Shown in pieces: positions 1 through 26,073 of a stretch of DNA of 31,155 nucleotides. The stretch covers positions 1 to 31,155 of IMG/VR virus record IMGVR_UViG_2548876865_000016, one strand, 5' to 3'. The stretch is from a virus (taxonomy: Duplodnaviria > Heunggongvirae > Uroviricota > Caudoviricetes). A program made the translations under genes and the position numbers. Every line of letters begins with the position of its first letter. Position 1 is the first letter of the stretch. The notes below the pieces were generated by a model, which worked only from the letters and a program-made list of their open reading frames with translations, did no database searches and was not told the DNA's origin.

Positions 1-966
1 ATGAAGCTATACATCATCGGGAATGGGTTTGATCTGCATCACGAACTTGACACGAGCTATTTCTCATTTGGGGATTATCTTCGGAAGAAAGATCGAGACA
101 TTTACGATCACTTGGTTGAGTTTATGGGATTTACTGACTTACCCCCTTCTCTTTCCGCAGTTGATAAGTCAAAACATTCTCTTTGGTCTGATTTCGAAAA
201 CAGCTTAGCGGGTCTGGATACAGAGTCGGTGCTCGAAGAGTTTAGCTATCTTTTACCCCAAATTAGCAGCCCCGATTTTCGTGACAGGGACTGGAACTCA
301 TTATCCATTGAAATGGAACGTATACTAGAAAATTTAACCGAGGGACTTTTAACACAATTCAAGTCATTTATATTGCAGGTTAACTACCCCGAACTTAATT
401 TAAAAAAAAGATTGCGTATCGATTCTGATTCTATCTTTATCAGTTTTAATTACACTGAAACTCTTCAGAAATATTATAGTATTGATGATAGACAAATTTT
501 ATATATTCATGGGAAAGCATCATCAGATCAACAGTTGATTTTAGGTCATGGTATTGACCCTATCAACTTTGAAGAAAAGGAAGCAGTCCCGCCCGAAAAT
601 GCAACCGATGAAGAACTTGAAGAGTGGCGTCAGTGGATGGCTGATAATTACGATCACTCTTATGAAATGGGAAAGCAGACTATTAATAAATACTTCACTT
701 CTTCTTTTAAGAATACTGAAAAAGTCATTGCTGACAGCGCTAAATTTTTTAAAAATCTCAGTAACGTAGACGAAATCATCATCATCGGCCATTCGTTATC
801 ATCTGTAGATGTTCCCTACTTTTCTTTTATACATAGCATTGTTAGTAAAAATACGGAATGGATAGCCACCTATTATCAGGAAACTGAGCGTGAAGCACAT
901 CATACAACATTATGTGAGATTGGCATTAAATCTCCCAAACTGATTTCAGTAAGTAAACTTCTATAA
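1..966 (+). CDS. AbiH-family abortive-infection protein (321 aa; ORF starts at window position 1)
   Basis: N-terminal MKLYIIGNGFDLHHELDTSYFSFGDY matches the AbiH family N-terminal signature as I recall it; clearly AT-richer than the phage backbone; convergent with the tail operon. Confidence 0.55.
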   Translation: MKLYIIGNGFDLHHELDTSYFSFGDYLRKKDRDIYDHLVEFMGFTDLPPSLSAVDKSKHSLWSDFENSLAGLDTESVLEEFSYLLPQISSPDFRDRDWNSLSIEMERILENLTEGLLTQFKSFILQVNYPELNLKKRLRIDSDSIFISFNYTETLQKYYSIDDRQILYIHGKASSDQQLILGHGIDPINFEEKEAVPPENATDEELEEWRQWMADNYDHSYEMGKQTINKYFTSSFKNTEKVIADSAKFFKNLSNVDEIIIIGHSLSSVDVPYFSFIHSIVSKNTEWIATYYQETEREAHHTTLCEIGIKSPKLISVSKLL

Positions 967-18991: not shown

Positions 18992-20803
18992 ATGGCTAAA
19001 TATTCCGATGAATTAAAAGAAGCGGCCCGCACGCTTTATATTAAAAGCTGGTCGCCGAAAGATATCGCGCAGGAACTGAATATTCCACCGCGTACAATTT
19101 ACCACTGGGCTGACGCCGGGAAGTGGGCATCACTGCTGCCTGTTGAATCGGTGGAAAATGTCATCACCCGCCGTATCGACCAGCTCTCCCGCCGCGAGAA
19201 AAAAACCGCACTGGAACTGGAGGAGCTGCGCGAACTGATTGCTCACCATGTGAAGCTCATGGCGCAGCGCAACAAGCACGCCGAAAAGCTGGCAGAAATT
19301 CAGGCCCAGAAAGCGGCTTATGATGGTGAAGGGTACTGCCTCAGCAGCGCAGGCGGGGAACCAGGGGAAAGAAAGCGCCGGTATAAGAAAAACGACGTTT
19401 CCGGCATTACACCTGAAATGCTCGACACCTGGGCGCGGGAGCATCTCTTCGAGTACCAGCTGCACTGCCGCGAACATAAAGGCGAAGACTGGCGCTTCAT
19501 TCTGAAAAGCCGACAGGTCGGCATGACCTATTATTTCGCCTGGGAGGCATTCGAAGATGCCGTCATTACCGGTGATAACCAGGTCTTTTTCTCTGCAAGC
19601 CGCGCCCAGTCAGAAATCTTCCGCGAATACATCGTCCAGATCGCCCAGAACCATTTCGGCGTTACACTGACGGGTAAAAATATCCGCCTCAGTAACGGCG
19701 CAATACTGCGCTTTTTATCCACGAACGCCAGCACCGCGCAGGGCTTTAACGGCCACCTGTATGGCGATGAGGTTTTCTGGATCCCGAAATTCACGCGCCT
19801 GCACGAAGTTGCCAGCGCAATGGCGACACATAACAAATACCGGACGACCTACTTTTCGACGCCCAGCGCGAAAACACACCAGGCTTACCCGGTCTGGACT
19901 GGCGAAGCCTGGCGCGGGGACGACCCGAAACGCAAAGGTGTGACGTTCCCGAAAGAAGACGAAATGCGCCAGGGCATTCTCTGCCCGGACCAGATCTGGC
20001 GCTACATCATCACGATGGAAGACGCTATCAAAGGCGGCCTCGGGGCGCTTGTCGATATTGAACGGCTGCGCAACAAATACAGCCCGACCGCGTTTGCCAT
20101 GCTCTACATGTGCCAGTTTGTTGACAGTAAGGACGCGGTGTTCAAGTTCTCCGCGCTTGTCGGCTGCGAAGTGGACCGGGCCACATGGGGCGACTTTGAT
20201 CTGACCGCTGCGCGGCCCTTTGGCAATCGCGAAGTATGGGCAGGTTTTGACCCGTCCCGCTCCGGCGACAACTCCACCTTTGTGTTAATCGCGCCCCCAA
20301 TCGAGGACGGCGAGCGCTTCCGCGTGCTGGCCGTCTGGCAATGGCAGGGCTTTAACTTTAGCTGGCAGGCTGACCAGATTAAGCAGCTTATGCGACGCTT
20401 TAACATTACCTACATCGGGATCGATACAACCGGCATTGGTAAAGGCGTTTATGACCTGGTCAGTAAGTTTGCACCGCGCGAAGCCACGCCCATTCTTTAC
20501 AGCGTCGAAAGTAAAAACCGCCTGGTCATGAAGATGATCGACGTCGTCGAACGCAAGCGCATCGAATGGGCAAAAGATGCCGTAGACGAAACGAACAAAG
20601 AGCGCGTCGAAATACCGGCCAGTTTTATGGCTATCCGGCGCACCACAACCAACAGCGGCAACGCGCTAACGTTTGTTGCCGAACGCTCGGACGCGACCGG
20701 CCACGCAGATGTTTTCTTCGCTATCTCGCACGCCGTAATTAACGAACCTATTGATCACGAATATGACCGCCCATCGGGCTGGCACTTTGGGAATGCAGCA
20801 TGA
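18992..20803 (+). CDS. P: Terminase large (ATPase) subunit, gpP-like
   Basis: 603 aa (P2 gpP ~590 aa); precedes the portal gene with an overlapping stop/start. Confidence 0.85.
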   Translation: MAKYSDELKEAARTLYIKSWSPKDIAQELNIPPRTIYHWADAGKWASLLPVESVENVITRRIDQLSRREKKTALELEELRELIAHHVKLMAQRNKHAEKLAEIQAQKAAYDGEGYCLSSAGGEPGERKRRYKKNDVSGITPEMLDTWAREHLFEYQLHCREHKGEDWRFILKSRQVGMTYYFAWEAFEDAVITGDNQVFFSASRAQSEIFREYIVQIAQNHFGVTLTGKNIRLSNGAILRFLSTNASTAQGFNGHLYGDEVFWIPKFTRLHEVASAMATHNKYRTTYFSTPSAKTHQAYPVWTGEAWRGDDPKRKGVTFPKEDEMRQGILCPDQIWRYIITMEDAIKGGLGALVDIERLRNKYSPTAFAMLYMCQFVDSKDAVFKFSALVGCEVDRATWGDFDLTAARPFGNREVWAGFDPSRSGDNSTFVLIAPPIEDGERFRVLAVWQWQGFNFSWQADQIKQLMRRFNITYIGIDTTGIGKGVYDLVSKFAPREATPILYSVESKNRLVMKMIDVVERKRIEWAKDAVDETNKERVEIPASFMAIRRTTTNSGNALTFVAERSDATGHADVFFAISHAVINEPIDHEYDRPSGWHFGNAA

Positions 20804-21861
20804 CAAAGAAACAGCGTAATAATAAAAAATTCAGGTCCATGACCGGCAACAAGGTTGAAACCTTCACGCCAGGGCGCGGAAGCGTGATCACCTTTGGCGA
20901 ACCAGAACCCATCCTGACGACCGGCACGGATTATCACAATATCTGGTATGACAATGAGTATGACCACTGGCGACTCCCGATTGATCGCCTGGCGCTGGCC
21001 CAGCTGCCGAACCTTAACGGCCAGCACGGCGGGGTACTGTATGCGCGGCGCAATATGGTGGCCGGTGGCTATATCGGCGGCGGCCTGACGCCTGACCAGG
21101 TCGAACAGGCCGTCTTTGATTACCTGCTGTTTGGTGACGTCGCTATCCTGAAAATTCGTAATATGTTCGGGGAGGTGATCGACCTGCTGCCGCTGCCGTC
21201 GCTGTATCTGCGCTGCCGGAAAGACGGCTCTTTTGCTGTACTGCAGGAAGGGCCGGCGCTTATCTATGACCCGGAAGACATCGTCTTTTTTAAAATGTAC
21301 GACCCGCGCCAGCAGGTTTACGGCCTGCCTGACTATATCGGCGGCATCCATTCGGTGTTACTCAACAGTGAGGCAACCATATTCCGGCGCCGTTACTACA
21401 ACAACGGGGCGCACATGGGCTTTATCCTCTATACCAGCGATCCCAATCTCACGCTGGAAATGGAAAACGAAATCAAAGACAAGATCGCCCAGTCCAAAGG
21501 GCTGGGTAACTTCCGCAATATGTTTATCAACATCCCGAAGGGCGACCCGGAAGGGGTTAAAATCATGCCAGTGGGCGAGGTCAGCGCAAAGGATGAATTT
21601 GCCAACATCAAAGGGATCACCGCACAGGACATCTTTACCGCCCACCGTTTCCCCGCTGGCCTGGCGGGTATCATCCCGACCAACGGCGCGGTAATGGGCA
21701 ACCCGGAAACCGCCCGCACAACCTATCGCAAGGATGAAGTTATCCCACTGCAGCGCAAGCTAATGAACGGCGTCAACAATGACCCGGAGATCCCCGCACA
21801 TTTGCACCTGGTTTTTGATGTAGATATCCCGGCAATTACCGCCGAAAAGGGCGAAAAATGA
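20800..21861 (+). CDS. Q: Portal protein (gpQ-like)
   Basis: 353 aa (P2 gpQ ~344 aa); downstream of terminase large subunit. Confidence 0.85.
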   Translation: MTKKQRNNKKFRSMTGNKVETFTPGRGSVITFGEPEPILTTGTDYHNIWYDNEYDHWRLPIDRLALAQLPNLNGQHGGVLYARRNMVAGGYIGGGLTPDQVEQAVFDYLLFGDVAILKIRNMFGEVIDLLPLPSLYLRCRKDGSFAVLQEGPALIYDPEDIVFFKMYDPRQQVYGLPDYIGGIHSVLLNSEATIFRRRYYNNGAHMGFILYTSDPNLTLEMENEIKDKIAQSKGLGNFRNMFINIPKGDPEGVKIMPVGEVSAKDEFANIKGITAQDIFTAHRFPAGLAGIIPTNGAVMGNPETARTTYRKDEVIPLQRKLMNGVNNDPEIPAHLHLVFDVDIPAITAEKGEK

Positions 21862-22184
21862 GCGCAGTTAAGTTAAAATCATCCCCATTGTTAGCAATGG
21901 CGTGCGGGATGGTGAACATGCGAGTTTTTAAAATTAAATGTCCTGAATGCGGCTCACCGGCCATCATTCGTAAATCTGACTGGAAAGACAAAAAACTGGC
22001 TGATTTATACTGCGCCTGCACGGAAGTTGAATGCGGCCACACCTTTGTTTTTAACGCTCAGTTTTCTCATACCCTCAGCCCCAGCGGGCTGACCGGAAAC
22101 AAGCTGGTTAAATTTCTGATTGACCGGCTCAAGCCGGAAGAACGTCAGTTCGCGCTGGACCTGCTCAACGGCCAGACGGCATAA
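21858..22184 (+). CDS. ogr: Ogr/Delta-family zinc-finger late transcription activator (alternative ATG starts at 21897, 21909, 21918)
   Basis: CPEC...(21 aa)...YCACTEVECGHTF matches the Ogr pattern CxxC...YxxCxxxxCxxTF; the first start overlaps the portal stop (ATGA). Confidence 0.6.
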   Translation: MSAVKLKSSPLLAMACGMVNMRVFKIKCPECGSPAIIRKSDWKDKKLADLYCACTEVECGHTFVFNAQFSHTLSPSGLTGNKLVKFLIDRLKPEERQFALDLLNGQTA

Positions 22185-22190
22185 AAACAA

Positions 22191-22237
22191 AAACCCGCAT
22201 CAGCTAAATTTTAGTTCTTAGCCAAAAGCGGGTTTTC
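22191..22237. terminator. Putative bidirectional intrinsic terminator between the convergent ogr-like and MazF-like genes
   Basis: Two-tier hairpin cccgc-atca-gctaa-[loop]-ttagc-caaaa-gcggg, flanked by an A-run on the 5' side and tttt on the 3' side. Confidence 0.45.
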
Positions 22238-22252
22238 AATCATGAGATATTT

Positions 22253-22672
22253 TTACGCAGCCTTGTTAACTTTTTGATGGGCTAACTTCAATGCTGGGAT
22301 GTAGGCAGGATGTAAAGCGCCCATAACTGGTGACGTTGGTGCTTCGCCACTTTTCATGGGCGCAAGATTGAACCAGTCACTGTTATAGGGGAGTTTTATG
22401 AGCGTACTCATATCAAATTTAGTGTCGTGCGCAAGTCCAGAGATAGCAAACCCAGCATCAACAGTTCTGATAACAAACTCAGTACCGTAAATTCTGTCAG
22501 TTTTCTGACTTGTTCCGTAGACAACCATTACTGCATTATCTTCTTCTGCTACCTTCACAACCAGTGAAGGGCGAGGTTTTGGGCCAGGTTCCCCTGGAAC
22601 CTGAGGAAAGTAACACCAAACGATATCGCCTGGCTCAGGGAGGGGGGTATAGTTTTTTGTATTGGTTGCCAT
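22253..22672 (-). CDS. PemK/MazF-fold protein (putative toxin / endoribonuclease)
   Basis: 139 aa; N-terminal PEPGDIVWCYFPQVPGEPGPKPRPSLVV resembles the MazF/Kid signature (GD-I/L-W-x-F...RP-x-VV); strong SD (AAGGAG) upstream; AT-richer than backbone. Confidence 0.55.
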   Translation of the reverse strand: MATNTKNYTPLPEPGDIVWCYFPQVPGEPGPKPRPSLVVKVAEEDNAVMVVYGTSQKTDRIYGTEFVIRTVDAGFAISGLAHDTKFDMSTLIKLPYNSDWFNLAPMKSGEAPTSPVMGALHPAYIPALKLAHQKVNKAA

Positions 22673-22681
22673 TTGTTCTCC

Positions 22682-22966
22682 TTACAAGAGACTTTTAGTA
22701 AATCGCTCCTCCGGTATATCGCTCGCGGTAGAAAGCTCACGAATAGTTTGGATTTGAGCTGTTGTCAGCGGCCCGTCATCTTTTTCGTAATGTGGCAGAA
22801 AAGCATCAGCCAGTTTACGTAATGCCAAATGGGCCAGTTCGGTTTTTGTCATCCCTGTCAGCGTCATCAGCGCATCCAGCGTATAGCCGCTGATAGCGTT
22901 CGGCGTATCCTTCTCTCTTAATCGAAGAACGAAATCGCCGGTTTTTTTAACGACGTGTACTGTCAT
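22682..22966 (-). CDS. Unknown protein upstream of the MazF-like gene (candidate antitoxin/partner)
   Basis: 94 aa; 9-nt gap to downstream gene; GGAG SD; no resemblance to MazE/PemI seen by eye. Confidence 0.4.
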   Translation of the reverse strand: MTVHVVKKTGDFVLRLREKDTPNAISGYTLDALMTLTGMTKTELAHLALRKLADAFLPHYEKDDGPLTTAQIQTIRELSTASDIPEERFTKSLL

Positions 22967-23106
22967 TTTTGATACTCCAGTTAGTTACTTGTGTAATAGA
23001 CCTCTCTTATTCTTAAAGTTGTCTTCGGAACACCGAATGAGCTGGGTTACGGTTGAACATTATTCACTCCTAGGTTAGGGATGCCTGATAGTAGGCACAT
23101 AAGAAA

Positions 23107-23156
23107 GATATCAGATTGATATCACAAAAGCAAGGCAAAGATATCATATTGATATC
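23107..23156. promoter_or_regulatory. Twin 17-bp palindromes (GATATCA-N3-TGATATC), candidate operator pair
   Basis: gatatcagattgatatc at 23107-23123 and gatatcatattgatatc at 23140-23156, 33 bp apart, in the intergenic region between the stop of gene A and the start of the 94-aa gene. Confidence 0.5.
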
Positions 23157-23243
23157 TTCATGACTGAGCGGGCTCTTTGCCGCCCGCACCCGCAGAATCA
23201 CGCTAACCGACGCAACCAGTTGCGACGGCCAGCGCGATTTCAT

Positions 23244-25859
23244 TCATTCTTTTGGGTGGCGACCTTCCACATCCGCCAGCATTTTTTGATACTCCCCGAT
23301 CGGATCAAACCGCAGACGCGTGGCATCAATGCCGTGGTTATCCCGCAGGCGTTCCCATAATTTATTTACCGTCTGTGACTCATCGGGTAATTGACGTGTT
23401 ATCAACTGACCGCCAGCGCTGGCCTGATAAATTTTGCCGTCTATCTCCAGACGGCTCCCCATTAACAACGAAACGGCCTGAATCTCTGAAATCTCAACTG
23501 AATACAACGCCGCATCAGCCAACAGGCTGGCAACCGCAGGGGTAAGCGATGCCCGTCTGGCTTTTTCAGCCGTCGATCTGACCTCGGTTTTTTCGACAGC
23601 AGAACGCCAGGCGACATCTAATTCGCTTCCTGGCTCATAAGGTGATCCGCTTTGCTGCCTTTTGAATGGTGTTTCACGTAGTCGCCGCATCAATTTGCGC
23701 CGCGTTGTCTGGTCCATGTTTTCAAAATCGACGATTTCCTCTTCTGATTCTTCTGTCATACCCTCCACATCAGGCAAAAAATCGGTGATTTTTTCGTCTT
23801 CCGTAGAGTTATTGACAGAACTCCAAGCGTCGCCGGTTGGCGACGGCAAAAGGTCAACCCCCAAACCAGGGCCGTTTTTGGCCCCGGTGGCGGCTTTGGA
23901 TTTGGCGCGGATTTTCCACTTAACCAGACGGGTGCAAATACGGGAGGCATCACCCAGACGCGGCGACCAGACCCCGAATACCTTTTCGGGGATCTCACAA
24001 TAGGCGTTCATTTCATCAGCTGGCTGATAGGCCAGACGGACGACATAGTTTTCTCGCGGGATCAAAACACCGCCCTGGCGGATGATGTAGGTAGCAAAGC
24101 ACCCGACATCGGCAGCGGCGCAAACCGCATCCATTGCAGGATCCACAAGCAGCGGCGCACCGCGTTTGAAGGTATTGTCAATTTTCTGGCGGGTCGTGAT
24201 CTGATTGCTCAGTTTGCGCAGCTCGCGGTAAACCGATATGGGCGGCTGTCCGATAGGCTGAAACTGGCGGATACGGTGAAGCGACGCCCAGGCCATTGCA
24301 TATTTGGCGGTTTCATTCAGCGGTTTGCCGCTTTCGTCGTCCAGTTCACCGGCCAGCGCGTGGCCGTCGATATTCTTCGAAATGTATTTAGCGATGTATG
24401 CCGTTGCTGACCCTTTCCGTGGGTCCATTTTTTTTGACTTGAAACGAGCACCGGTATTACGGCCCAGCTCGTCGCGGTCTTCCGCAATGAAGTAGGCGCG
24501 AAGGATCGCAATCGTGGCTTTGACTTGCTCTTGTGGCATAAATAGCAACGCGTGCCAGTGTGGTGTCCCATCGTGATGCGGCTCGGCGACGCGGAAGCCA
24601 TAAGGGCGCAAATCTTCGCGTTTCAGTTTGGCGGTTGCCCGGTTCCATACTCGGCATAAATAGCGCTGCGCCTGGGCGACGGTGGAATGATTCCATTTGG
24701 CGTTATGGTGGCCGGACGCAATATTACTGTGATATTTCGACGGGCAAGTGATGGTCAGGAAGATGCCAACATCGCCGCGACTTTGGGCGACAAGCTCAAC
24801 CCCAGCCATTCGGGCCATAAGCTCATGGCGACGAATAGCCGGGTTAGACGTGGATTTATTAATCATTTCCTCAAGCGACGAAACGTTGCCGTCTTCGTCT
24901 ACCAGTTCATGACTTTTGAAAAAATCCCGGTGTTTACGGCGCTGTTCCTGCCACTCGATCAGGCTGGAAACGCTAACGTAGGCGTGCGCTTTTTTATTTA
25001 CCGCGCCAACAGCACGCAGCTGGTTCTCGCGCCAGTCACAACGCAAGCGCCAGATTTTACGCCCCCACCAGTCAGGCGAAGCCATACGCAAAATGGCCGT
25101 GCATATGCGCTCGCGTTCCCACGGCGCATACCATGCAGGCGGTACAATGCGAAGCGCCAGCATTTCGCGGCCCTGGTGGCAATAAAGCCAGTCCAATTCT
25201 TCGACGTTCATGTCTGAAACATTCCGTCCCAGGGCTTCGCATTCCGTCCCCAGCATTTCAGCCATGCGGCTGGCGATCTCATTAGCGGCGCTCAGTGCTT
25301 CCCGCTTTGTGAAATCAGCCAGACGTTGCCAGCGCCCGAACCAGTACGCAGCCAGTTCGCCGGTGATATCAGGCGAAACACCTTGCCTTGTGCGTACAAC
25401 ATCAAGACGCAGCAATGATTTTTTCACGGTCCCCATAAGAAAATCATTGGTGTGTCTGGTTTCACGGTTGACCCGTAACCACTCAATTTTTTTACGCCAG
25501 ACTTCACGAATGAAGAACGGTTCTGATAATAAACGCGCTTCGACACCTTCGGGCGTATTGACCCAGGCTGCCGTCGTAGCTTTAGCGGCTTCCATTTCCT
25601 GCCGGATTATATTTTGATGGGCGGCCAGTAGCAGGCCGTACGGTTCGTACCTGTCCAGCGCCTGGATAAGCGCGTTACGGTCCCGAACCTCGTCGGGGTT
25701 GTAACCGGCGCGTTTGAAGATGTGATCGATGTGTTTTTTTACGGCTGGATGATGTACCACCGCCCCTGCAAGCGGGGCGATTTTTTTCGGTTCGTAGGTG
25801 TACAGGCCAATAGCTGGGCGCGGCGCGTTCCAGGGCCATGCAAAAGCGGTGTCAGACAT
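23244..25859 (-). CDS. A: Rolling-circle replication initiator (P2 gpA-like HUH endonuclease); start taken at ATG 25859 (ORF track GTG at 25877)
   Basis: ~871 aa; HUH-type motif (TPHWHALLF) and paired Tyr (ATAYIAKYISK); ATG at 25857-25859 lies 2 nt after the upstream small-ORF stop. Confidence 0.8.
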   Translation of the reverse strand: MSDTAFAWPWNAPRPAIGLYTYEPKKIAPLAGAVVHHPAVKKHIDHIFKRAGYNPDEVRDRNALIQALDRYEPYGLLLAAHQNIIRQEMEAAKATTAAWVNTPEGVEARLLSEPFFIREVWRKKIEWLRVNRETRHTNDFLMGTVKKSLLRLDVVRTRQGVSPDITGELAAYWFGRWQRLADFTKREALSAANEIASRMAEMLGTECEALGRNVSDMNVEELDWLYCHQGREMLALRIVPPAWYAPWERERICTAILRMASPDWWGRKIWRLRCDWRENQLRAVGAVNKKAHAYVSVSSLIEWQEQRRKHRDFFKSHELVDEDGNVSSLEEMINKSTSNPAIRRHELMARMAGVELVAQSRGDVGIFLTITCPSKYHSNIASGHHNAKWNHSTVAQAQRYLCRVWNRATAKLKREDLRPYGFRVAEPHHDGTPHWHALLFMPQEQVKATIAILRAYFIAEDRDELGRNTGARFKSKKMDPRKGSATAYIAKYISKNIDGHALAGELDDESGKPLNETAKYAMAWASLHRIRQFQPIGQPPISVYRELRKLSNQITTRQKIDNTFKRGAPLLVDPAMDAVCAAADVGCFATYIIRQGGVLIPRENYVVRLAYQPADEMNAYCEIPEKVFGVWSPRLGDASRICTRLVKWKIRAKSKAATGAKNGPGLGVDLLPSPTGDAWSSVNNSTEDEKITDFLPDVEGMTEESEEEIVDFENMDQTTRRKLMRRLRETPFKRQQSGSPYEPGSELDVAWRSAVEKTEVRSTAEKARRASLTPAVASLLADAALYSVEISEIQAVSLLMGSRLEIDGKIYQASAGGQLITRQLPDESQTVNKLWERLRDNHGIDATRLRFDPIGEYQKMLADVEGRHPKE

Positions 25860-26073
25860 TGGATGCCCCGCTATCACCCTCCCGCAGGGAATGCTTTTCG
25901 ATTAGCGGGTCGAGTAACACATTGAAAGAAATCAACAGCGTGTTTGCGGCTTCACTTCCGGCGAGAACACCCGCCAACGTTGCGTGTGCAAGGGCCAGTG
26001 TTTTGGCTTCGTTAAGCGCAGCCAGTGCGCCGCGCTGGTATTCCGAAAGACCGTTATTAATTTTGCTAGCCAT
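25852..26073 (-). CDS. Small hypothetical protein (73 aa), translationally coupled to dam
   Basis: ATG overlaps the dam stop (ATGA); its stop abuts the proposed start of gene A. Confidence 0.35.
   Translation of the reverse strand: MASKINNGLSEYQRGALAALNEAKTLALAHATLAGVLAGSEAANTLLISFNVLLDPLIEKHSLREGDSGASNV

Follow-up and report, generated by a model that had tools for sequence, protein, structure and literature searches.

The 31,155-nucleotide window studied here, IMG/VR virus record IMGVR_UViG_2548876865_000016 (Duplodnaviria; Heunggongvirae; Uroviricota; Caudoviricetes), is a P2-like prophage (Peduoviridae; Irrigatiovirus-like) that carries, between its ogr gene and replication gene A, two small genes on the minus strand. 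The upstream gene encodes a 94-residue protein of an unnamed family and the downstream gene a 139-residue protein of the MazF/PemK fold. It can be concluded with considerable confidence that the two form a MazF-type toxin-antitoxin (TA) pair in which an antitoxin made of a probable ribbon-helix-helix (RHH) DNA-binding domain and a presumed toxin-binding tail precedes the toxin. Very likely, the interval as a whole is a self-contained, mobile TA cassette of the ordinary type II, a 'moron' residing in the gpA-portal hotspot, which would act by the mechanism and with the outcomes proposed below.

The initial annotation had suggested an atypical TA or abortive-infection module with a novel partner. 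The TA-like operon and the lack of a name for the partner were borne out, but the pair is not of a new kind. Its antitoxin has the standard type II layout, pairs of an RHH antitoxin with MazF are known (4me7, 5xe3), the toxin bears an NCBI name, and the gene arrangement occurs in the catalog of Rousset et al. The toxin already has a name and the hotspot is known; it is the antitoxin family that is unannotated.

A mobile cassette in the P2 hotspot

The TerL, portal and ogr genes on the plus strand and gene A on the minus strand face each other convergently, with the two minus-strand open reading frames (ORFs) between them. Homology to Salmonella phage SI7 (Irrigatiovirus) ends at position 22185, one base past the ogr stop codon, and restarts at 23168, which defines the intervening segment as the unit of exchange (Table 1). 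Phages SI7, SW3 and SW5 carry in the same slot a DNA methyltransferase and a 66-aa ORF. Two E. coli prophages with the shared backbone, drawn for inspection from 19 genomes that match the 3' end of ogr only, have there a single protein of 925 residues. The interval is therefore not an invariant part of the backbone, and its initial description as a variable hotspot agrees with the report that the cos-proximal gpA-gpQ region of P2-like phages is a hotspot of anti-phage genes whose 18,150 occurrences comprise 1,650 arrangements (Rousset et al. 2022; PMC9122126). The supplementary table of that study lists one 'hypothetical + Ogr_Delta + PemK_toxin' arrangement, which is not among the systems tested there (PMC9122126) and which very probably represents the same pair. 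The 925-aa 'hypothetical protein' (WP_249926060.1 in E. coli 2011C-4251, L105:4848-7625; WP_000439987.1 in O45:H2 strain FWSEC0003, L106:4848-7625; positions after an L-number are those within the respective locus) has no match in Pfam or PADLOC and is an unannotated candidate defense gene in a defense hotspot.

As first noted, the cassette is AT-richer than the backbone. Its GC content is 43.6%, compared with 52.7% for the window, and just 6% of 982-bp segments have an equal or lower value; GC at third codon positions is 40-46% in the cassette genes and 57-68% in gpA, portal and terL. The two genes constitute the tight operon that had been described. They are separated by 9 nt (GGAGAACAA), the Shine-Dalgarno sequence of the toxin gene (AAGGAG) overlaps the stop codon of the upstream antitoxin gene, and that of the antitoxin gene (GGAG) lies 8 nt 5' of the ATG.

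In species-representative genomes 401 loci encode a relative of the toxin; the pairing and operator counts given here rest on 80 of them. A profile search for co-occurrence, proposed along with the initial annotation, showed that in 79 of the 82 toxin matches the gene immediately upstream, in the same orientation, encodes a protein of the 94-aa family. The gap is about 3-10 nt, and the loci inspected have no third conserved gene. The pairing is close to obligate. On one Burkholderiales contig a second copy of the toxin family (L056:3881-4237) without a detectable upstream partner was observed beside a normal pair at 1601-2246.

The pair occurs in a Massilia chromosome, in a Methylophilaceae TA island beside RelB/YafQ, BrnT/CopG and AbiEii, on IncFII/Tn3 plasmid regions of Klebsiella, in P2-like prophages and in another prophage type. 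The parts of the cassette travel together on the Klebsiella plasmids and in prophages of Yersinia, Edwardsiella and Morganella. The Edwardsiella copy adjoins an integrase at a prophage end, the Morganella copy is located at the Ogr-proximal end of a P2-like prophage, and the Yersinia enterocolitica copy lies between terminase genes on the opposite strand (L107/L108:3707-4420). None of the complete E. coli genomes in the collection contains the cassette at 85% identity or more. The Yersinia copy has as neighbors a small-terminase (Terminase_2) gene and, upstream of the portal gene, a 547-aa gene that probably encodes the large terminase. The prophage is of a non-P2 type (Phage_portal_3, Mu_F, Mom), and its packaging operon is an uncommon site for a moron.

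Exclusion of other phages has about an even chance of being the main selected role of the cassette in this prophage. Pure addiction, in which the cassette would only stabilize its prophage or plasmid by post-segregational killing and have no anti-phage role, is possible, although we would not call it probable. MazF/PemK (Kid) first became known as a plasmid-stability toxin. Addiction would also fit the homologs on 50 PLSDB plasmids, 36 of them conjugative, those beside IncFII replication genes and Tn3, and those at prophage ends beside integrases. It accounts less well for the window copy, which sits in a P2 hotspot enriched for anti-phage systems, and the orphan copies of the antitoxin or its C-terminal module in lytic jumbo phages of the same host genera (see below) would be puzzling if phages were never confronted with the toxin.

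The antitoxin family and its probable operators

The 94-aa protein belongs to no family in Pfam, NCBIfam, PHROG or PADLOC. The single match in PADLOC-DB v2 (REase_II, E 0.007) is at chance level, and searches of PDB sequences with the single sequence and with a profile returned chance matches only, such as Bcl-2. Its family contains at least 320 clusters at 90% identity according to a profile search, all labeled 'hypothetical', and 278 representatives at 50% identity according to an exhaustive HMMER search. The impression that it lacks the AbrB-type features of MazE and PemI was substantiated by Pfam and NCBIfam, whose AbrB/SpoVT-type profiles (PF04014 and relatives) matched neither the window protein nor any of 59 family members, even at E<=1. 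The protein is clearly not an AbrB-type MazE or PemI.

An AlphaFold2 (AF2) model has a confident core from residue 11 to 58, consisting of an extended segment and helices at 27-37 and 41-56 (beta-alpha-alpha), followed by a tail of low confidence with one helix at 69-78. Such a combination is the standard appearance of a type II antitoxin modeled without its partner. The tail coincides with a C-terminal module of 37 residues that is strongly conserved in the family (consensus YExDDGPLTxxQIxxIRxxSxAxxxPEExFTxxLF) and that presumably neutralizes the toxin, by analogy with other antitoxins. For the N-terminal domain, the matches to Pfam families among the 59 members were all below threshold, to PSK_trans_fac (Rv0623-like) in 39, VapB_antitoxin in 14 and RHH_1 in 7; those to PSK_trans_fac are in register and reach 15-20 bits against a cut-off of 28.3. 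Foldseek found nothing significant in the PDB for the model, the best match being DinJ (E 2.2). The strand has an alternating, basic L-R-L-R motif, and the turn at the start of helix B, T37-G38-x-T-K41-T42-E43, is (nearly) invariant. RHH proteins have the turn signature GxSRSE; the likeness of G38-x-T-K-T-E to it provides an RHH hallmark in the antitoxin sequence. Taken as a whole, the DNA-binding domain is probably RHH rather than helix-turn-helix (HTH).

The twin palindromes pointed out in the initial annotation lie upstream of the antitoxin gene (Table 1), 33 nt or three helical turns apart. The family-wide form of the motif is (G/T)ATAT(A/C)-N5-(G/T)ATAT(A/C). In 73 of the 80 loci, NATATN-N5-NATATN is present within 200 nt upstream of the antitoxin gene, at a density of 4.7/kb as compared with 0.019/kb in the remaining 527 kb of the same loci, an approximately 250-fold enrichment. 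On Klebsiella plasmids and chromosomes the palindromes are kept upstream of the pair within otherwise unrelated flanks, and among the enterobacterial cassettes, including the prophage copies of Yersinia, Edwardsiella and Morganella, they are the best-conserved noncoding elements. Of five enterobacterial cassettes that were compared, those of the window, Klebsiella, Yersinia and Edwardsiella retain the twin arrangement; in the fifth, from Morganella, the extracted sequence ends near the distal site, which could be read only in part. The palindromes were also considered as an origin or cos site of the phage backbone. This was rejected, because the exchanged segment includes them and they accompany the pair to plasmids and other phages.

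A further observation connects the palindromes to the 94-aa protein itself. Residue 15 of the antitoxin, located in the predicted beta-strand, is Arg in all 28 loci with G as the outer base of both half-sites and Lys or Gln in all 27 loci with T at both (Fisher p = 2.6e-16, phylogeny ignored; 24/0/0/24 after removal of duplicate proteins). Since readout of guanine by an arginine in the strand is expected of an RHH protein, the covariation favors the assignment of the operator as well as that of the fold. The palindromes are hence supported as the operator of the pair, to which the antitoxin would bind, and autoregulation of the operon by the antitoxin at these sites may be inferred from the sequences. 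A putative promoter can be placed between and over the palindromes, its spacer and -10 region being overlapped by the proximal one. Its geometry is kept in other cassettes, with a perfect TTGACA in that of Edwardsiella when read by eye.

It is improbable that the 94-aa protein is merely an HTH-type transcription factor while something else neutralizes the toxin, in which case this would not be a classical two-part TA system. Its fold is fixed by no significant structural or sequence match, weak matches to HTH_26 or HTH_31 appear in a few members, and JGI labels two as HTH regulators, all of which would suit a plain regulator. Such a protein, however, would hardly be expected to occur almost obligatorily a few nucleotides upstream of the toxin gene, where no third conserved gene could supply the neutralizing function. 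Nor would it be expected to possess a 37-aa module that is strongly conserved yet poorly ordered when modeled alone, as a toxin-binding tail should be, and that is found elsewhere alone, in tandem or fused and is therefore an independent functional unit.

The toxin

The assignment of the 139-aa protein to the MazF/PemK fold, first made from an N-terminal signature, was confirmed by several approaches. Pfam PemK_toxin (PF02452) matches it with 28.7 bits (gathering score 23.1, E 1.6e-6), as does the PHROG family 'MazF-like growth inhibitor', and a precomputed PF02452 match exists for about half of the toxin homologs. An identical protein in Enterobacteriaceae is named by NCBI 'type II toxin-antitoxin system PemK/MazF family toxin'. 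With the NCBIfam MazF equivalog the protein scores 13.7, far below the cut-off of 120, and it is therefore not an ortholog of E. coli MazF. The AF2 model built with 68 homologs (pLDDT 93.7, pTM 0.87) displays the SH3-like barrel of the CcdB/MazF fold with a C-terminal helix. Foldseek found 68 PDB matches at E<=1e-3, of which the 50 listed are without exception MazF-type toxins (MazF, YdcE, MoxT; probability 1.00), aligned over approximately the full length (126-140 columns) with target template-modeling scores of 0.68-0.79 and 12-21% identity. R34-P35 and G53-T54 are invariant among the 68 homologs, and a hidden Markov model alignment to E. coli MazF equates R34 with R29, P35 with P30 and T54 with T52. 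We take R29 and T52 of the E. coli enzyme, and likewise R25 and T48 of B. subtilis MazF, to be the catalytic residues in MazF structures. The protein is, as modeled, a MazF/PemK-fold toxin, and it is predicted to be a ribosome-independent, sequence-specific endoribonuclease.

That it is instead a toxin of this fold without RNase activity, a gyrase poison like CcdB or one with another target, is very unlikely, for although CcdB and MazF share a fold and the PemK_toxin match is of half length in a protein about 25 residues longer than classical MazF, with a 20-residue insertion around 96-115, none of the 50 listed structural matches is a CcdB, Pfam CcdB gave no match, the equivalents of the catalytic Arg and Thr are aligned and invariant, and the NCBI name agrees.

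Proposed mechanism

The following sequence of events is proposed for a MazF-type TA cassette. The N-terminal domain of the antitoxin would dimerize and bind the two (G)ATATC-N5-GATAT(C) operators that flank or overlap the promoter, with the result that the operon represses itself. The C-terminal 37 residues would wrap around the MazF dimer and block its RNA groove, as in the solved MazE-MazF complexes. The antitoxin is presumably labile. When its synthesis stops, either through a host shut-off induced by a phage or through loss of the element, it would decay, and the freed toxin would cleave RNA and arrest growth. A superinfecting phage would then be aborted, or cells that have lost the prophage or plasmid would be killed, two outcomes that are not mutually exclusive.

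Several points weigh against this interpretation. Toxicity, RNase activity, neutralization and phage exclusion are predicted properties, and neutralization by the C-terminal module is proposed by analogy. Neither protein is covered by a PADLOC model, and the toxin had no match in PADLOC-DB v2. The PemK_toxin match spans residues 14-70 only (profile positions 2-61 of 109), and matches of the toxin to PDB sequences are marginal (E 0.08-0.9). No RHH match of the antitoxin is significant by sequence or structure search. The p value of the covariation disregards relatedness among the loci; on a rough neighbor-joining tree residue 15 and the outer base have switched about five times, which is more than one event. 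A scan for consensus promoters made no call, and the putative promoter is weak by consensus.

Relation to known systems

A close parallel in organization, and the source of the best structural matches of the toxin, is found in MazEF of B. subtilis (EndoA/YdcE and EndoAI/YdcD; 1ne8, 4mdx, 4me7) and the pairs of S. aureus and M. tuberculosis with RHH-type MazE. In these, too, a MazF-fold toxin is encoded downstream of a small antitoxin in a tight operon with palindromic operators, and, as is probable here, the antitoxin combines an RHH-like domain for DNA binding at its N-terminus with a tail that binds the toxin. Among the fold matches, 4me7 (B. subtilis MazE-MazF) and 5xe3 (M. tuberculosis MazE4-MazF4) are pairs of an RHH antitoxin with MazF. 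The present pair differs from them in the low toxin identity and the longer toxin with its insertion, both given above, in an antitoxin that has neither a Pfam or NCBIfam model nor detectable homology to known MazE, and in its occurrence in phages and plasmids of Proteobacteria. With E. coli MazEF and ChpBIK and with PemIK of R100/R1 (Kis-Kid) it shares the PemK_toxin family, the aligned catalytic Arg and Thr, the antitoxin-first gene order and, by analogy, possibly the role of an addiction or phage-exclusion module. The MazE and PemI proteins of those systems contain an AbrB/SpoVT swapped-hairpin domain, unlike the 94-aa protein with its predicted beta-alpha-alpha core. Antitoxins of the Rv0623-like (PSK_trans_fac, PF07704) and VapB type resemble it in the weak in-register similarity of the N-terminal part and in the layout, probable for the 94-aa protein, of RHH domain and C-terminal tail, but the scores stay below the Pfam cut-off and their partner is the PIN-domain toxin VapC rather than MazF. 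With P2 tin/old and other gpA-gpQ cargo (PMC9122126) the cassette has in common the slot and the form of an exchangeable, AT-rich unit with its own terminator and putative promoter; the proteins are unrelated.

Orphan antitoxin modules in jumbo phages

A tblastn search of 50,697 cultured phage genomes gave no match for the toxin. The antitoxin, in contrast, has relatives there. Full-length solo antitoxins are encoded by a Yersinia and an Erwinia phage, the C-terminal module forms a protein of its own in a Pectobacterium phage, and it constitutes the N-terminus of a larger protein in a Pseudomonas phage (Table 1); Yersinia phages fHe-Yen9-03 and -04 contain partial matches to the module. No MazF-like gene accompanies the orphan copies of the jumbo phages. 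In the Yersinia jumbo phage the homolog is followed by a 135-aa gene, which was considered as a toxin and rejected, as by eye it has none of the invariant motifs of the toxin family. The phage copies are 40-66% identical to antitoxins of the same host genera.

Metagenomes contain the module as peptides of 41-44 residues (P0339, P0388), fused to unrelated N-termini, or as tandem duplications (P0292, L022:5001-5291; P0361; P0370). That it is found alone, in tandem or fused identifies it as an independent functional unit. Among 80 matches fetched from IMG/VR were about 10 full-length orphan modules, most of them from contigs 195-380 kb long, and 12 whole TA cassettes; about 55 of the 80 were partial matches (module positions 2-23) in ORFs of 400-550 residues, which were discounted as probably an unrelated motif. 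On phage-like contigs, the gene for P0292 has a solo gene with an RnlB-antitoxin domain two genes away (L022:4384-4785, L023:3530-4024), and CBB_474 lies two genes from CBB_476 (L020:1972-2448), for which the record notes a PrlF_antitoxin domain. These are hints of small 'anti-TA' gene clusters in large phages.

There are precedents for antitoxin-like proteins on the side of the phage. B. subtilis MazF is inhibited by two products of phage 3T, AimX (3T/SPbeta) and the MazE-like YosL (bioRxiv 10.1101/2023.04.27.537455), and T4-like phages carry orphan DarG-like antitoxins (PMC11825919). The jumbo-phage orphans derive from another antitoxin family, and their function is putative. The presence of modules derived from this antitoxin in jumbo phages of the same host genera is a circumstantial hint of a defense role. 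As a tentative proposal, this MazF-like clade might be a dedicated abortive-infection defense of Proteobacteria, from which jumbo phages that infect Yersinia, Pectobacterium, Erwinia and Pseudomonas would have taken the module as a decoy antitoxin to disarm the toxin, in places beside other orphan antitoxin genes (RnlB-like, PrlF-like).

Further features of the locus

Table 1 Coordinates of the cassette, its probable control elements, flanking genes, antitoxin domains and orphan antitoxin copies
Feature	Position	Strand	Remarks
Whole mobile cassette, 982 bp	22186-23167	minus	Terminator, toxin, antitoxin, leader, promoter, twin operators
Bidirectional intrinsic terminator	22189-22237	both	Serves the converging ogr and toxin transcripts
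Toxin gene, 139 aa	22253-22672	minus	ORF, PemK/MazF family
Antitoxin gene, 94 aa	22682-22966	minus	ORF, unnamed family
Leader, ~140 nt	22967-23104	minus	Promoter to antitoxin start
Putative sigma-70 promoter	23105-23133	minus	-35 TTGCTT 23128-23133, 17-nt spacer, TGn and -10 TATCTT 23105-23110
Probable proximal operator palindrome, GATATCAGATTGATATC	23107-23123		GATATC-N5-GATATC, 17 bp; overlaps spacer and -10 of putative promoter
Probable distal operator palindrome, GATATCATATTGATATC	23140-23156		GATATC-N5-GATATC, 17 bp
TerL	18992-20803	plus	Backbone gene
Portal	20800-21861	plus	Backbone gene
Ogr/Delta zinc-finger activator	21858-22184	plus	Pfam 2.6e-17
Replication gene A	23244-25877	minus	Phage_GPA 1e-105
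N-terminal probable RHH domain	Antitoxin residues ~11-57
Conserved C-terminal 37-aa module	Antitoxin residues ~58-94		Presumed toxin-neutralizing part
Yersinia phage fHe-Yen9-02 gp277	L002:2489-2758		Full-length solo antitoxin
Erwinia phage Yoloswag gp44	L003:2498-2803		Full-length solo antitoxin
Pectobacterium phage CBB, CBB_474	L020:1486-1629		C-terminal module alone, 47-aa protein
Pseudomonas phage HRDY3	L021:1495-2019		C-terminal module as N-terminus of 174-aa protein

The bidirectional terminator of the initial annotation was recovered by RNA folding. The hairpin between ogr and the toxin gene has a folding energy of -22.4 kcal/mol (z -4.95) on the minus strand, where the U-run UUUUUGUUUUU follows, and of -16.2 kcal/mol (z -3.85) on the plus strand, where UUUU follows; since it folds well and is followed by U-runs on both strands, it is taken as a terminator in both directions. 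Owing to its structured loop, the hairpin had escaped a simple terminator scan.

The leader is poorly conserved among cassettes. Its RNA fold (22960-23110) has no significant structure (z -0.83), and no part of the cassette matches an Rfam family. It contains an upstream ORF of 15 codons (MFNRNPAHSVFRRQL; 23013-23060, minus strand) with a good AGGAG Shine-Dalgarno sequence. Short ORFs are similarly placed in the Klebsiella and Yersinia cassettes, and that of Yersinia likewise ends in RRQL. The 15-codon ORF may be a leader peptide or due to chance.

The start of the Ogr/Delta ORF is ambiguous. It encodes either 108 residues, with a 4-nt overlap with the portal stop codon, or 91 residues; the 91-aa call is commoner among relatives, and both calls exist in public annotations of near-identical prophages. 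Some relatives of the window prophage possess in the early operon, directly upstream of gene A, an ORF for a 75-aa protein with a ParE_like domain (L008:2330-2557, L011:1599-1826), possibly a second gene of TA origin in this phage lineage.

A search of the window for the P2 cos 19-mer with up to 3 mismatches gave no match, and cos was not located. Since ogr directly abuts the cassette, cos would, if it lies inside the hotspot, fall into the 76 bp of backbone between the cassette and the gene A stop codon (23168-23243). This stretch contains an imperfect inverted repeat of 21 nt (23196-23216 / 23219-23239) and, on the minus strand, a G-rich run, GGGTGCGGGCGGCAAAGAGC, with a loose likeness to the P2 cos overhang.

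Implications

With this cassette the P2 defense hotspot gains one more type of cargo, and an unannotated antitoxin family gains a name and a testable model that comprises its domains, a specificity residue and the operator. Should the cassette exclude phages, it and the orphan modules of the jumbo phages would provide a ready-made pair of defense and counter-defense for study. The decoy proposal, if true, would describe the first such counter-defense against a MazF-family toxin in Gram-negative hosts and would define 'anti-TA islands' of jumbo phages. Otherwise, the cassette is one more MazF-type TA system on mobile elements, and as such it may aid the persistence of conjugative plasmids of Klebsiella.

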